Shown in pieces: positions 49,469 to 60,961 of a stretch of DNA of 64,000 nt. Under the pieces are notes generated by a model. It worked only from the letters and a program-made list of their open reading frames with translations. It was not told the origin of the DNA and ran no database searches. The first letter of the stretch is position 1, and every line of letters starts with the position of its first letter. The stretch is from Candidatus Helarchaeota archaeon (GTDB taxonomy: Archaea > Asgardarchaeota > Lokiarchaeia > Helarchaeales > RDOG01), in the NCBI GenBank assembly GCA_019058315.1, contig JAHPZH010000002.1, forward strand, positions 608,001-672,000. Reading direction: 5' to 3'. The position numbers and the translations under genes were made by a program.

Positions 49469-50272
49469 ATGTGTCCTGAATTTAAGACTGTTCTTTATGA
49501 AAAAAAGAATGCTGTAGCTGTCATAACTTTAAACCGTCCTAAAAAATTAAATGCTTTGAATTCTCAGATGAATAAAGATATAAAATATGCTTTTAAAGAA
49601 GCCAAAGAAGATAAAGAAATCAGATCTATTGTTCTTACTGGTGCTGGACGAGGTTTTTGTTCTGGAGCTGATGTTTCGGACTTTTCTGGGGGTGTAACAT
49701 TGAGGGATTTTAAAAAAATGACCGAAGAAGGAGTAACACCTGAAACCATTATTACACCGTATGATCTATTGGATGTTCCTAAACCTATTATTGCAGCAGT
49801 GAATGGAGTAGCGGTAGGTTTTGGAATGAATGTACTCCTAAACTGTGATATTATTTATGCATCTGAAGATGCTACTTTCGGAGAATTTTTTATTAGAATG
49901 GCTGTAATTCCCGATATGAATGGAAGTCTCCTATTACCCATGTTAGTTGGAATTCATAAGGCCAAAGAATTGATTTTTACTGGTGATAGAATTGATGCTA
50001 ATGAGGCATTACGAATTGGGTTGGTGAATAAAGTATTTCCAGCAAATCAGTTGATGTCTGAAACAATGAAATTAGCAAATAAATTAGCTGAGGGTCCTCC
50101 TCTTGCTTTAGCAATGTCAAAGAAGATAATTCATGAAGGGTTTAAAAAGGTATATGATACAATGCTTTTAAAAGAACTTCAATATCAAACGAAATTATAT
50201 ACTACGAGGGATCATAGAGAGGCTGCGATGGCATTTCTAGAAAAAAGAAAACCAAAATTTAAGGGGAAATGA
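49469..50272 (+). CDS. Enoyl-CoA hydratase/isomerase (crotonase family, PaaG-like)
   Basis: LNRPKKLNAL, FCSGADV, KPIIAAVNGVAVG, IPD, AFLEKRKP.F; GAGGTGA at 49454-60 favours the ATG at 49469. Confidence 0.9.
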   Translation: MCPEFKTVLYEKKNAVAVITLNRPKKLNALNSQMNKDIKYAFKEAKEDKEIRSIVLTGAGRGFCSGADVSDFSGGVTLRDFKKMTEEGVTPETIITPYDLLDVPKPIIAAVNGVAVGFGMNVLLNCDIIYASEDATFGEFFIRMAVIPDMNGSLLLPMLVGIHKAKELIFTGDRIDANEALRIGLVNKVFPANQLMSETMKLANKLAEGPPLALAMSKKIIHEGFKKVYDTMLLKELQYQTKLYTTRDHREAAMAFLEKRKPKFKGK

Positions 50273-54308: not shown

Positions 54309-55337
<1,029 letters not shown>

Positions 55338-55765
55338 CTAACTATATTTTTTACCGAAATTATAAAGAATTTTCATTTTTTATTTAAAATTAAAAAATTC
55401 ATTTACGGTAATTGTAATAGTTCATAGATTTGAATGGTTATTTAATTTTTCCTAGCCAATTTGCTATTCAAATTTTAAATTAGGTAAAAGATTTTCTAAT
55501 TGGGACCTAAAATTAATAATAATGATTAATAATCGATAAAGAAAAATAAATTAAACGTTAATAATGCAAATTTATAGTATCTTTACCAGAAATCTATTAT
55601 AATTTCATTTCTATTCATACGAATTATAGTTTTATCTTCAAATAAAATTTAAATTGATCATCTGATAATGTAAATTCACTAAATAGATTAGGTTTAAATA
55701 AAAAATAACTTTATGTTTCTTGAATAAAAGCTCAATAGGAGTTGAATAACAGGATTTAGATAAAA

Positions 55766-57709
55766 ATGAGTGAAGAACCACGCATTGGAGTTTTTATTTG
55801 TCGTTGAGGCAAGAATATTGCTAGCGTAGTTGACGTAGAAGGTTTGGTCGAATATTCAAGCGATTTACCTTGTGTTAAATGCTCAGATCAAAACATAGCA
55901 CTATGTTCAGAACCTGGCGCAGAATTTATTAAAGAATGTATTGAAGAACATGACTTAAACCGTGTTATAGTAGCTGCTTGCACTCCATTAACTCACCAAC
56001 CAGTGTTCCATGCAGTTTTAGAGGAAGCTAATCTTCCTTCAAGAATGCTTGAATTCTCAAATTTAAGAGAACAAGTATCATTTGTCCATGCGGAAGATAA
56101 AGAAAAATCATTAGATCAAGCAAAAGACATTATACGAGGAGCTGTCGGAAGAGCACAACTACTTGAAGCAGTCCCACGAAAAGTGGTAGACGTTATACCT
56201 AAATGTGCTATTATCGGTGGCGGTATTGCAGGGATGACAGCAGCTTTAGAATTGGCTGATAAAGGCTTTAAAGTTTACTTAATTGAAAAAACGCCCTCAC
56301 TAGGGGGAAATATGGCAAAATTAGATAGAATCTTCCCTACTGATGAATGTTGTATTTGAATCTTGGGACCATTAATGCTTGAAGTTAATCGCAATTCAAA
56401 TATTGAAGTAATGGCATATTCAGAAGTGACTAAAGTTGATGGCTTTGTAGGTAATTTCAAGGTCCATGTGACTAAGAAACCTCGATATGTCTTACCCGAT
56501 GTTTGCAATTCATGCGGTGCTTGTGTAGATGTCTGTCCTATATATATACCAAACGAATTTAACTTTGGATTCTCACCAAAAAAAGCTATCGACATTCTAT
56601 TTCCACAAGCTGTTCCAGCAGTATATACAATTGAAGAAGAAAACTGTGTTCGATGTTATGCATGTGTAAACTCGTGTGAAGTTCATGCAATTGATTTCGC
56701 CCAAGAACCTGAAGAAGTTGAATTGGATGTCGGAACAATCATTGTGTGCCCTGGCTGGGACATGTTTGAATCTGATAGATATGGATACGGAAAATATTGG
56801 AATGTAATTAACCAAATTCAACTGGAAAGAATTCTTTCCGCCAGTGGACCCACAGAAGGACATTTGTTACGAGTTTCTGATAATAAAGTCCCTAAAAAAG
56901 TATTAATGATCAACTGTGTCGGAGCAAGATCTGAAAAAGAAGGTGAACATACCTATTGTCCAGGTGTATGCTGCTTAGTGACCATAAAAAATGCTCAATT
57001 AATACTAAGTGAATACCCAGATACTGAAGTTATAGTCTCTTATCGAGATATTAGAACACCTGGTAAAAATTATGAAGAGTATTACCGTCGTGCTCGAGAA
57101 AAAGGAATAATCTTTATTAAAGGTATGGTTGGAGATATTGAAGAGGATCCAGTTACAAAGAACCTCATTTGTTACTTAGAGGATGAAGGAACGGGCCAAA
57201 ATCTTGAATATGAAGCAGATATGGTCGTTCTTTCTGCGGTACCTTATCCATCCAAAGGGGTGGATCAAATTGCAGATTTAATGAAACTTGAAAGAACCCC
57301 TGACGGATTTTTAAGGGAGTTTCATAATAGACTTGATCCAATTAGGACTAAAGTGCCCGGTGTTTTTATTGCAGGTTTTGCTCAAGCGCCTAAACCAGTA
57401 GATATGACTGTAAATCAAGGAAAAGGAGCTGCTTCAGCAGCGGCAACTTTGCTCGTTCAAGGAAAATACGAAATAGAACTTATTCGAGCACAATGTAACC
57501 ATGAAGTTTGTAGCCTATGTGGGAATTGTGTTGAAATTTGTCCTTATAATGCAGTAACAATCGAAAATGATAAAGTCATCGTTGACGAAATAGCATGCCA
57601 AGGATGTGGTGCATGTTCTACAGTCTGCAAAAATAATGCCATGACTTTGCGATACTTTAGAAATATTCAATATGAAGCAATGATAGAAGGAATATTACAG
57701 ATTATTTAA
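55766..57709 (+). CDS. hdrA: Heterodisulfide reductase subunit A, selenoprotein with two Sec (UGA at 55805-07 and 56357-59), 647 aa
   Basis: One frame from ATG 55766: MSEEPRIGVFICR*GKNIA and FPTDECCI*ILGP, with both TGAs at conserved Cys positions (CHCG; DCxxC); GGGIAG FAD motif; inserted and C-terminal ferredoxin motifs. Confidence 0.93.
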
Positions 57710-57720
57710 GAGGTATAAAA

Positions 57721-58155
57721 ATGAGCGAAGGATTTTTACCCAAAATTGCAGCATTCTTATGCTGGAAATGAGGCTATGGCGCATGTGATATGGCTGGAAC
57801 AATTCGTCGTCAGTATCCTGCAAGCTTGCGAACAATTTTAGTTCCTTGCACTGCTAGAGTAGACCCAGAATATATAATTCGATCATTCTGTAAAGGCGCT
57901 GATGGAGCTATCGTAGTCGGCTGATTAGAAGGCGATTGCGATTACGAAACCGGAAATCTATTAGCAAGACGCCAAGTGGAATATTTAAAATTATTATGTA
58001 AGACACTTGGACTTAACGAAGACAGAGTCGAAATGAATAATATGAGTTCAGCAGAAGGAGCAAAATTCGCTGATTTTGCTAGTGAAGTTACAGAAAATAT
58101 CCAAAAAATTGGACCAAACCCACTTAAAACTGCTAAAGCAAAAAAAATTGCTTAA
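57721..58155 (+). CDS. mvhD: MvhD/VhuD [2Fe-2S] subunit, selenoprotein with two Sec (UGA at 57769-71 and 57922-24), 144 aa; absent from the ORF track
   Basis: MSEGFLPKIAAFLCWK*GYGACDMAG..QYP..VPCTARVD..GADG..VG*LEGDCDY..GN..SSAEG.KF..IGPNP; GAGGT upstream. Confidence 0.93.
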
Positions 58156-58160
58156 TTATA

Positions 58161-58233
58161 CTGCCTATAAAGATTGATCTTTGCAGTAAAAGTTGAGCTG
58201 CAAAGTGACTACTCTTGCAAAGAGTTTAGGCAG
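58161..58233 (+). ncRNA. Eukaryote-like (Asgard-type) SECIS element
   Basis: Helix I CTGCCTA/TAGGCAG; core UGAU (58175-78)/UGAC (58206-09) giving tandem G-A pairs; helix II CTTTGCAG/CTGCAAAG; apical AAAA; begins 5 nt after the mvhD stop. Confidence 0.88.
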
Positions 58234-58265
58234 AAATTCAATATTTATTTAAAAGAGGAATTTTA

Positions 58266-59414
58266 ATGGAAATTGGAGAAACCTATACGGTAAGACCTGA
58301 TGAGTCAGCTCTGATCAAACTATTTCAGATGCTATTAGAAGAAAAAGTTGTCGATTCTGTTTTAGGATTTGATATTAAGAAAAAAAGATATGATCTATCA
58401 CCTAAAGCTATTGAAAATCCAAAAGAATTAACTCTTCTTCCTCTTTCCCAATATCTTGCTTATAATTATGCTAGAATAAATTCATCATCAAAGTTTGTTC
58501 ATACGAAAATGAATCCTCGTAATAAGAAAATTGCACTTATTGCACGTCCATGTGACACCCGAGCATTTATTGAACTCTCTAAATTTAATCAATTAAAACT
58601 TGATAATCTTTTTATTATCTGTACTAATTGCACTGGTTCAATTTCTGCAGCCGATGTTCAAAAAGGTATTGAAAATTTAAAGTTAGATCCTGAAAATGTT
58701 GAGGCAGAGGAATTAGGAATTAATTCTATAAAAATACTAATAGCTGGGAAAATACAAGAGATTAAATTTTCTGATTCTATTAAACGATGGGATAATTGTA
58801 GCAGATGTCATAAAAGAGAAGGAAGTATTTGCGATATACAAGTAGATTTTTATCTCGATGGTACTAAAAAAGTTATAACCCTAACGATCATTTCTGAAAA
58901 AGGTAAAGAGATATTGGAAAAAGCTGTGTCTTCCAAAAAAATTCAATTAGACAAAACTACTGCTGCTGTTAAAAAAAGGAAGGAATTAATGGAAAAAATA
59001 GTTGCTCAAGCCACTGAATATAGGGAAAAATCTATTGCTGATTTTCAGAATTTATCTGATGAAGAAAAATTTGCTAAAATAGCTAAAGAATTTATAGAAC
59101 CCTGTCGAGTTTGTGGGCAATGTATTAATGCGTGTCCTGTCTGTTATTGTCCTACATGTGATGTGATGCGAAGAAGAAAGGAAAAGGAAGCCGGTTTTGA
59201 TGGAAGACTTTATTTACTAACTAAAATGGCTCATATGGGTGATATATGCATAGGATGCGGAAAATGCACAGTTGCATGTCCAGCAAAAATTCAAAGTGCA
59301 TTCTTCTATGATGTTTTAACTGATTATGTCAAACAAGCTTTTGGTTATGAACCTGGAAGATCAGCTGAAGAAATCTATCCCAGAACAATGAAGGCTATTA
59401 AGAAATCTAGATAA
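58266..59414 (+). CDS. FrhB/FdhB-family F420-interacting subunit with C-terminal [4Fe-4S] clusters
   Basis: IALIARPCD.RA..EL....Q...DNL..I..NC.G, C.RC, CRVCGQCINACPVCYC..C, CIGCGKCTVACP. Confidence 0.85.
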   Translation: MEIGETYTVRPDESALIKLFQMLLEEKVVDSVLGFDIKKKRYDLSPKAIENPKELTLLPLSQYLAYNYARINSSSKFVHTKMNPRNKKIALIARPCDTRAFIELSKFNQLKLDNLFIICTNCTGSISAADVQKGIENLKLDPENVEAEELGINSIKILIAGKIQEIKFSDSIKRWDNCSRCHKREGSICDIQVDFYLDGTKKVITLTIISEKGKEILEKAVSSKKIQLDKTTAAVKKRKELMEKIVAQATEYREKSIADFQNLSDEEKFAKIAKEFIEPCRVCGQCINACPVCYCPTCDVMRRRKEKEAGFDGRLYLLTKMAHMGDICIGCGKCTVACPAKIQSAFFYDVLTDYVKQAFGYEPGRSAEEIYPRTMKAIKKSR

Positions 59415-59467
59415 TTTTTTAATTTTTAATAATTCATTTTTTTAAAGTCTTATTTTAGGAATAAACC

Positions 59468-60961
59468 TTAATTTTCTTCAGAGGGTTTTTTCGAAGATCC
59501 AATCCTTTTTGTAAGTTCTTCTCTATCCAATACACTTTTTCTTTTAATGAAACTCGAAAAACTAATAGGACTTATAAAGGCAGTTAAAATTGCAGTAAAA
59601 ATCAAAATTTCTTGTAATACGGGTGCAATTAAGTAGTATTCTACACCGATACTGGCTGCAGCAATAAGTAAAGTTAACCGCGAAGATTGTAATATTCCAG
59701 AACCTATACCATCTTTTACTGTTTGATAGCGAGAGTGATAAATTACATTTGGAATTATTTTTACTAAGAATGCTACAGAAATTATCATAATTAATAGAAA
59801 AATTGATTCATTTGATGAAAATAATTCATTTACTTCAAATTTTGCACCTACTGTAATAAAAAATATAGGGATGGTAAAACCATAACCTATTGCATGTAAT
59901 TTTGAATGTAATTCTCGTGATTTTTCATGGGGACTAATAAGTGATATTATCATTCCAGCAAGAAATGCTCCCAAAATCATTTCTACACCTAATAACTCAG
60001 ATAATACAACAAATATTAAGAGTAGAAAAATTGCCCCAGTAATTTTCAGTTCATATGTTTCAGTATTCATTACAGCAAGTCTAGAATGCCATTTAGGAGA
60101 TTTTTTTAGAATTTTCATAATTTGAAATGCTGTAAATGCAATAATGAATATCATGGGTAATAAGAGTAACTCGAGTGCAATCCCCGTGGTGTGAATTATA
60201 ATAAATGTAGTAATAAGCATCATTGACGCAAAATCTGCAATAATTGCGGAAATAATAATTCTCAAACCATAATCAGATTCAGCAAGACCTAATTCAGATA
60301 AAGTTGGAAATACAACACCTACTGAAGTAGTTGTAAGAACTAATGCAAGATAAAAAAGATCAAAATAATGAGCATTAATAAGCCCTAATGGTTTTGGTGG
60401 ATCAAAAATTAATATTAGATTAAATAAATTATTTTGCATTTCACTAGCTAATACTTCTAATATAAATGTGAATAGAAAACATAAAGCTATTACAAAACCG
60501 AAAATGATCACACCTAAAAGAAGGGGTTTATGATCTAGATCTAATTCATCATAGGTTATACCTCTCATATGCCACCAATGATGATCTAAATCATCTTTAT
60601 GTCTTTCTTTATGTTTTTTAACTTCATCTTTTATGTCAGGATGAATTAAATGCTCAAAATCTATCTCCAATCCACTAGAGAACATTAAAAATGCAAATCC
60701 AAAAAAAGAAAGAAATTCTAACCATAAACTAGGACTTATTATATTAAATCCACTCTTTCCTAAAAGAATTCCGATAAGAATCTCGCCTACTACAACTGGT
60801 ATTTGAATAGTTTTAATTCGGGATGTTATTATTGGAATAATCAAGGCGCATAACATAATAATTAGAAGAGAGATTAGGGATCCAGCAGAAAATTCTTTTA
60901 ATTTCTCAACTTCTGTAAAATATGCTATTACAAATAAAAATAAATTTGGATCTTCTGGCAA
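59468..60961 (-). CDS. CPA2-family cation:proton antiporter
   Basis: P.VVGEIL.GI.LG, LMF.SGLE.D, TTSVGVV, AIIAD, LGAFLAG, PIFF..VG. Confidence 0.9.
   Translation of the reverse strand: MPEDPNLFLFVIAYFTEVEKLKEFSAGSLISLLIIMLCALIIPIITSRIKTIQIPVVVGEILIGILLGKSGFNIISPSLWLEFLSFFGFAFLMFSSGLEIDFEHLIHPDIKDEVKKHKERHKDDLDHHWWHMRGITYDELDLDHKPLLLGVIIFGFVIALCFLFTFILEVLASEMQNNLFNLILIFDPPKPLGLINAHYFDLFYLALVLTTTSVGVVFPTLSELGLAESDYGLRIIISAIIADFASMMLITTFIIIHTTGIALELLLLPMIFIIAFTAFQIMKILKKSPKWHSRLAVMNTETYELKITGAIFLLLIFVVLSELLGVEMILGAFLAGMIISLISPHEKSRELHSKLHAIGYGFTIPIFFITVGAKFEVNELFSSNESIFLLIMIISVAFLVKIIPNVIYHSRYQTVKDGIGSGILQSSRLTLLIAAASIGVEYYLIAPVLQEILIFTAILTAFISPISFSSFIKRKSVLDREELTKRIGSSKKPSEEN

Follow-up and report, generated by a model that had tools for sequence, protein, structure and literature searches.

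The window analysed in this study is a stretch of 64,000 nucleotides (nt) from Candidatus Helarchaeota archaeon (assembly GCA_019058315.1, contig JAHPZH010000002.1, here C5), corresponding to C5:608001-672000 of a 5.8-Mb genome of 30% GC in 12 contigs, and our subject in it is a tandem pair of genes, hdrA and mvhD (vhuD), with in-frame TGA codons and a selenocysteine insertion sequence (SECIS) element behind them. An earlier note on this DNA had claimed that each of the two genes carries two in-frame TGAs read as selenocysteine (Sec), that both genes end in TAA, that only 11 nt lie between them, and that a single distal SECIS apparently serves all four codons. Gene calling with the standard table 11 splits both hdrA and mvhD into fragments, and manual Sec annotation is therefore needed. 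After reading TGA as U (Sec), two clean frames were obtained, and the TGA codons, the TAA stops and the spacer were all found as claimed (coordinates are those of the window unless a contig is named):

55766..57709, + strand: hdrA, heterodisulfide reductase subunit A homologue, 647 amino acids (aa), stop TAA
55805..55807, + strand: UGA-Sec codon U14 of hdrA, context FICR-U-GKN
56357..56359, + strand: UGA-Sec codon U198 of hdrA, context DECCI-U-ILGP, the canonical HdrA Sec site
57710..57720, + strand: hdrA-mvhD spacer, 11 nt, with a Shine-Dalgarno sequence GAGGT as read from the sequence
57721..58155, + strand: mvhD/vhuD, 144-aa [2Fe-2S] electron-transfer subunit, stop TAA
57769..57771, + strand: UGA-Sec codon U17 of mvhD, context LCWK-U-GYG
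57922..57924, + strand: UGA-Sec codon U68 of mvhD, context VVG-U-LEGDC
58161..58233, + strand: SECIS element, three-way junction fold, matched by covariance model R1 (see below)

The HdrA product matches the structurally characterised HdrA chains 9sfi_A (E 4e-202) and 5odc_A (E 2e-192) of PDB over residues 3-645, and carries the FAD/NAD-binding and 4Fe-4S domains of Pfam; by this full-length likeness it belongs to the type I HdrA proteins, for which an N-terminal Cys domain, an FAD domain and two ferredoxin domains are named. The MvhD product was recognised as FlpD (PF02662, 141 bits), the domain being present together with its conserved Cys/Sec positions, and matches VhuD/MvhD chains in PDB (the VhuD chain 9sfi_K at E 2e-37). 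The nearest relatives of the locus are found in metagenome-assembled genomes (MAGs) of Helarchaeota and Promethearchaeota (Asgard), and the comparisons below employ a set of 80 related Asgard loci, or 81 with the locus itself. The locus is of the standard Asgard type of selenoprotein gene pair, hdrA-mvhD(vhuD).

All four TGAs stand in columns occupied by Cys in the Cys-type hdrA and mvhD paralogues of the same genome and by TGA in its other Sec-type copies, which is the outcome expected from the earlier note, where an alignment with Cys homologues had been proposed as a check. At the U14 column, Cys is found in the 6 paralogues of the genome that cover it and TGA in the genome's 2 other Sec-hdrA genes; at the U198 column, which aligns to X (Sec197) of the Methanococcus maripaludis HdrA chain 9sfi_A, Cys is found in 14 paralogous high-scoring segment pairs of the genome and E, K or D in three others. 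Wherever the alignment of a related locus extends to either codon, that codon is TGA. In mvhD, U17 (Cys in 11 paralogues) and U68 (Cys in 10 paralogues) align to an X (Sec) and to the second X (Sec) of chain 9sfi_K, respectively, and each is TGA in 80/80 relatives. Three of the four TGAs (U198, U17 and U68) coincide with Sec of the solved M. maripaludis Hdr-Vhu-Fwd structure 9sfi (PMC13518236), and the configuration of two Sec in each protein is the commonest among the relatives (42 of 68 complete pairs).

The splitting of the genes by standard calling, which leaves pieces of 171 aa and 448 aa under table 11, is what would be seen if the TGAs were genuine stops or mutations and if hdrA and mvhD were pseudogenes or fragments. 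Against this stand the restriction of the TGAs to conserved Cys/Sec columns, the recurrence of the same four TGAs in every related locus covering them, the presence of an apparently complete Sec machinery together with a SECIS, and the pattern of strain variation. Contigs of three other sediment samples, from a different study, hold strains that are 90-99% identical, and among the differences listed 32 of 38 (84%) are synonymous over the whole frame, on both sides of the TGAs, the remaining 6 being mostly conservative (one Ser to Pro) and none falling at a TGA or inside the SECIS. We regard the pseudogene explanation as very improbable. Even harder to credit is a change of the genetic code, in which TGA would be a general sense codon read without SECIS-directed Sec insertion: some uncultivated lineages do reassign TGA, and the frames are open when TGA is taken as sense, but TGA closes 483 of the 3020 long frames of the genome and 5 of the 42 in the window (among the latter those ending at 50272 and 2500, in keeping with the earlier note, which had TGA still used as a stop in the window), within the hdrA/mvhD paralogues in-frame TGA occurs at Cys columns only, and the sole tRNA with a UCA anticodon found by aragorn is tRNA-Sec. 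This explanation can practically be set aside. From the sequence comparisons taken together, the four TGAs are assigned as Sec codons with high confidence.

The machinery for Sec synthesis and insertion, for which the earlier note had recommended a search, was found in the genome as follows:

C5:127141-127232: tRNA-Sec, anticodon UCA (TCA), Rfam RF01852 at 63.5 bits against a cutoff of 47, called tRNA-SeC(tca) by aragorn
C5: SepSecS, TIGR03531 at 482 bits, above the curated cutoff
C5: EFSec/SelB, TIGR00475 at 287 bits, above the curated cutoff
SelD: TIGR00476 at 235 bits, above the curated cutoff, with one in-frame TGA inside the match
C5:433175-433906: PSTK-like gene, TIGR03574 at 170 bits (E 1e-49), under the curated cutoff of 290

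The genes for EFSec, SepSecS and tRNA-Sec form one uninterrupted cluster on C5 (L001/L005/L009, C5:124363-128115), which is followed by an AIRS/SelD-like paralogue without TGA, which scores 46 bits to TIGR00476.

The 110-nt gap after mvhD folds as a three-way junction (-23.8 kcal/mol, z -2.6), composed of the following parts, all on the + strand:

58161-58167 with 58227-58233: helix I, CUGCCUA paired with UAGGCAG
58174-58177: core UUGA
58178-58186 with 58198-58206: helix II, a stem of 9 positions
58187-58197: apical loop UAAAAGUUGAG, 11 nt
58207-58208: 3' GA
58211-58225: auxiliary 3' hairpin

Helix I begins 5 nt past the mvhD stop. The UGA at 58175-58177 and the GA at 58207-58208 flank the 9-position stem as the kink-turn core, and helix II is made up of 8 Watson-Crick pairs and, next to the core, a U.U, a position at which many relatives also lack a Watson-Crick pair; the 11-nt apical loop UAAAAGUUGAG has A at positions 2-5 and ends with AG. 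Placed just 3' of the UGA-containing mvhD and recognised by the family covariance model, the element shows all the features published for the lokiarchaeal SECIS (lokiSECIS) except for the first A of AUGA. The distance from the first UGA of hdrA to the SECIS core (58175) was measured to be 2370 nt, close to the 2.36 kb of the earlier note.

With respect to this first core position, the quartet among the 80 relatives is AUGA in 77 and GUGA in 1, the 2 others being spurious best matches. Mariotti et al. 2016 (PMC4989117) described AUGA as 'always' present in 25 elements, and Huang et al. 2024 (PMC11227280) gave the model core as GA_[G/A]A. Since the latter report GUGA variants, the first position is not invariant across Asgard, and UUGA is herein treated as a variant and not as an exclusion from the lokiSECIS class. 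A search of the literature for UUGA cores in natural SECIS elements returned nothing relevant.

The same layout of helix I, kink-turn hairpin and auxiliary hairpin recurs in the relatives. In an alignment of 63 loci (A2), the HdrA-VhuD SECIS class is a three-way junction, of which the conserved helix I encloses the kink-turn hairpin and the auxiliary 3' hairpin; helix I is CCGA/UCGG in most relatives, and CUGCC/GGCAG here and in the Helarchaeota MAG L024. In the available portions of Mariotti et al. 2016 and Huang et al. 2024, no mention of the auxiliary hairpin was found.

An element with AUGA, a 9-position stem, an 11-nt loop and GA was identified after mvhD in about 73 of the 80 relatives, and the covariance model R1 was constructed from 61 such related lokiSECIS elements, the locus under study being left out of the training. 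Among the 61 aligned elements, compensatory changes were seen at each of the 8 Watson-Crick pairs of the stem (stem pairing was part of the selection of elements for the alignment; covariation was not). With filters off, R1 gave one significant match in the 64-kb window, at 58165-58216 (27.2 bits, E 1.7e-4, 128 kb searched), in agreement with the claim that the only SECIS lies after mvhD; the next-best match in the window, at 12.5 bits, is outside the operon. The hdrA coding sequence and its 5' region, which the earlier note had singled out for such a scan, yielded no second lokiSECIS-like element, R1 giving no + strand match up to E 10 between 55317 and 58164. Rfam gave no SECIS family match, either at gathering thresholds for the whole window or at E up to 10 for 55300-59500, and RF00031 does not recognise lokiSECIS, as found also by Mariotti et al. 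(PMC4989117). Bacterial-type hairpins do not stand out after the UGAs, the 70 nt after each folding no better than shuffled sequences. With neither an R1 match nor local hairpins, therefore, no second element was found in hdrA, mvhD or the 5' leader.

The layout of the pair is conserved throughout the relatives. The tandem order hdrA-mvhD, with a short spacer or an overlap, was found in 80/80 related loci, the modal spacer being 13 nt and some pairs overlapping, and among the units with a canonical element there is one element, at the 3' end of the unit, except for a pair on contig C11 of the present genome. TGA is the stop codon in 0/78 of the hdrA genes and in 20/80 of the mvhD genes of the related loci, the mvhD stop abutting the SECIS; kinship among the loci inflates any formal test of this contrast. 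The avoidance of TGA as hdrA stop repeats the argument of Mariotti et al. on an independent and larger set.

Taking all these observations together, we consider it likely that this standard Asgard pair contains Sec codons decoded by the Sec machinery and that one lokiSECIS serves both cistrons of a shared mRNA. In the proposed mechanism, machinery of archaeal/eukaryal type (tRNA-Sec, a putative PSTK, SepSecS, SelD and EFSec) would decode the four UGAs as Sec, the sole recoding signal being one eukaryote-like lokiSECIS kink-turn hairpin located 8-80 nt after the mvhD stop. The hdrA and mvhD genes would most likely share one transcript, which may extend into the frhB-like gene described below, and the SECIS, via EFSec and perhaps a factor that binds kink-turns, would deliver Sec-tRNA to ribosomes paused at any UGA of the mRNA, so as to reach also the two UGAs of hdrA, which belong to the other cistron and lie 1.8 and 2.4 kb upstream. 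Co-transcription and the action of the SECIS across the cistron boundary are what we infer, and are inferred in the literature as well. Of the findings that the earlier note had named as contrary to it, an absent Sec machinery and a second SECIS within or upstream of hdrA did not turn up in the searches made. The interpretation of the locus in the earlier note is thus supported, and it has already been published.

An alternative to this interpretation is that the hdrA UGAs are recoded by a separate, non-canonical signal, within hdrA, mvhD or the 5' leader, the SECIS after mvhD serving mvhD only. It draws on the paralogous hdrA-mvhD pairs of this genome and of its order, which hold a second structured intergenic element missed by the lokiSECIS model, and on 5'-untranslated-region SECIS elements, which work in Methanococcus (PMC11881835). 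At the present locus, however, the spacer is as short as 11 nt, the stretch 55317-58164 is devoid of R1 matches in the scan described above, and the folds after each UGA are no better than those of shuffles; according to Mariotti et al. (PMC4989117), RNAz found no other conserved structure in the HdrA/VhuD genes and 200 nt on either side, and the avoidance of TGA stops by hdrA agrees with a signal whose reach extends over all of hdrA. We therefore judge a separate hdrA signal to be unlikely.

Several points weigh against the reading of one lokiSECIS serving both cistrons. The U at core position 58174, which makes the core UUGA in place of AUGA, was found in 1 of the 81 loci, namely this one, and because of this core the R1 score (27.2 bits) is below that of the canonical copy in the genome (33.8 bits). 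Divergent elements can escape the scan, because R1 misses the intergenic elements of paralogous pairs, and the negative scan is thus not an absolute proof for hdrA. In addition, a separate mvhD promoter may reside inside hdrA; a search for RNA runs containing this DNA listed none. Finally, a lokiarchaeal SECIS was reported as non-functional in M. maripaludis (Peiter et al., PMC11881835).

The earlier note had also placed all four TGAs at conserved Fe-S ligand Cys positions. All four indeed occupy conserved Cys columns, and for U198 the ligand role is documented, Cys197 (the equivalent of U198) being described as a ligand of the N-terminal [4Fe-4S] cluster of the partner HdrA (PMC9012536); for U14, U17 and U68, the alignments show conserved Cys columns, where a ligand role is possible. 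Cryo-EM (electron cryomicroscopy) of 2026 placed Sec197, in another state, in a Cys-Sec bridge between cluster A3 and FAD (PMC13518236), and Mariotti et al. 2016, writing before the structure was known, took these Sec sites not to be ligands (PMC4989117).

The surroundings of the pair include one further gene on the same strand:

58266..59414, + strand: frhB-like third gene, 382-aa FrhB/FdhB-like product with a 4Fe-4S dicluster domain, PF04432 at 56 bits

This gene begins 32 nt downstream of the SECIS with its own GAGGA ribosome-binding site, and among the relatives an frhB-like gene after mvhD was found only in the closest one, L024. It may share an operon with hdrA-mvhD; in the event of co-transcription, the SECIS would be intercistronic instead of terminal on the transcript. 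To its two sides the pair has a GAPDH gene in divergent and a Na+/H+ exchanger gene in convergent orientation, and no hdrBC or hydrogenase genes were detected among the neighbouring genes scanned (47-64 kb of the window).

Outside the window, the genome carries further Sec-type copies. The paralogous pair on C11 has 3 TGAs in hdrA and 2 TGAs in mvhD, the two genes lying about 110 nt apart, and near-duplicate three-way elements are present after both genes (L108:1941-2036 and L108:1421-1510, both on the - strand). Each consists of helix I ACCC/GGGU, a hairpin of 9-10 bp closed by an A-rich loop of 13 nt, and a further hairpin whose loop reads AAUGCAA; neither has the UGA..GA kink-turn core, the two copies show one compensatory change between them, and the better one scores 9.7 bits with R1. 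No canonical SECIS was found within the 5 kb searched at this pair. Orthologues of the C11 type in five genomes of the same order (L115-L119, G002-G006) have spacers of 101-201 nt containing a homologous SECIS-like three-way element with a core of UGAUGA, UGAUGC or more degenerate sequence, of which the main hairpin shows compensatory changes at most pairs (7 sequences); the same orthologues also have a canonical lokiSECIS after mvhD, and R1 detects only the latter. These spacer elements contradict the 'always very short' intergenic regions and the single lokiSECIS described in the published accounts, and may be new.

Other SECIS-associated genes were observed in the genome. A single-Sec mvhD on C11 is followed by a canonical AUGA element. 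The third Sec-hdrA gene (U14 and U198) has a Cys-type mvhD upstream, the gene order being reversed with hdrA as the last of the pair, and carries its own canonical lokiSECIS directly after it (C3:41513-41563, L111:1014-1064, - strand, 33.8 bits), the AUGA of which supplies the in-frame TGA stop of the gene; such a placement is consistent with shared use of one element at the end of a unit. Another R1 match, at 25.9 bits (C3:786881-786923, L112:1882-1924, + strand), lies directly after an open reading frame with one in-frame TGA in the motif SIGUGG, a candidate for another selenoprotein gene; the AUGA of this element is preceded by TGA, giving a tandem TGA TGA in another frame. A match at C11:395600, located inside an open reading frame and lacking the core, was judged to be a false positive. 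The genome-wide R1 search scored 150 of about 14,800 first-look candidates and so falls short of a full SECIS census; it overlooked the canonical element behind the single-Sec mvhD of C11, which was seen by eye. When the genome was searched for UGA-stem-loop-GA with a loose regular expression, 1079 matches came up, uninformative at 30% GC, and the covariance model was used instead. Among the related loci, a 4.2-kb contig labelled as a Kosmotogaceae bacterium MAG (L050, JAWODV010000081.1) contains a Sec hdrA-mvhD pair of Asgard type together with a canonical lokiSECIS, and is probably a mis-binned Asgard contig.

To our knowledge, the Asgard hdrA-vhuD pair is the only case proposed in any organism of one SECIS serving UGAs in two cistrons over more than 2 kb. 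This arrangement bears on the origin of the eukaryotic SECIS. The present locus is a further member of the published Asgard arrangement, its only local peculiarity being the UUGA core; it adds one clean and well-assembled example with apparently complete Sec machinery, leaving the overall picture unchanged. More tentatively, the locus could represent a natural functional UUGA variant of lokiSECIS situated between cistrons 2 and 3 of an hdrA-mvhD-frhB-like operon, existing alongside a paralogous class with spacer elements that would make 'one shared SECIS' non-universal; we hold this combination to be possible but doubtful. If the reading of the spacer elements is true, the pairs with and without a dedicated hdrA element form natural matched pairs, usable to test the action of a SECIS across cistrons.

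In comparison with known systems, the element shares with the bacterial SECIS the direction of UGA recoding to Sec. In the bacterial system, however, a SelB-bound hairpin lies directly 3' of every UGA, whereas the four UGAs here have no such local hairpin behind them, and their machinery is of the PSTK/SepSecS type and not SelA. With the eukaryotic type I SECIS (RF00031; as in SelenoP), the element has in common the UGA..GA kink-turn core, the unpaired A in the apical loop, the 3' location and, as proposed here, the action over kilobases on several UGAs; it differs in the shorter stem, in the lack of an Rfam match even at E 10, and in the mRNA, which is proposed to be polycistronic, whereas eukaryotic selenoprotein mRNAs are not. 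We know of no SBP2 in Asgard archaea.

The Methanococcales and Methanopyrus have orthologous HdrA (Sec197) and VhuD (2 Sec), sharing the three Sec positions seen in PDB 9sfi, and their hdrA and vhuD are likewise neighbours, with SECIS 3' of the coding sequence; in contrast, their elements are of a GAA_A kink-turn-like type, each gene is described with its own, and the N-terminal Sec U14 is absent from the methanogen proteins. The closest agreement in kind is with the HdrA-VhuD (FrhD) pairs of Lokiarchaeota and other Asgard archaea. Their one-SECIS configuration was described in Lokiarchaeota and called 'unprecedented' by Mariotti et al. 2016 (PMC4989117), in accordance with the earlier note, which had taken Sec-containing HdrA/VhuD and eukaryote-like SECIS elements of Lokiarchaeota as established, and Huang et al. 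2024 (PMC11227280) restated the model and carried it over to hundreds of MAGs from Asgard archaea; the shared SECIS put forward in the earlier note is not new, because it is the model of Mariotti et al. 2016. The present locus differs from these pairs in the UUGA core, in the SECIS start at 19 nt after the mvhD stop (0-16 nt, or overlapping the stop, in the relatives), and in the frhB-like gene close behind the SECIS, by which the element may lie between cistrons. In all other respects compared, it conforms to them: the order hdrA-vhuD with a very short spacer and a non-TGA hdrA stop, the multi-Sec HdrA including the canonical site together with two Sec in VhuD, and a single element after vhuD with a 9-position stem, an A-rich 11-nt loop ending with AG, and the 3' GA.

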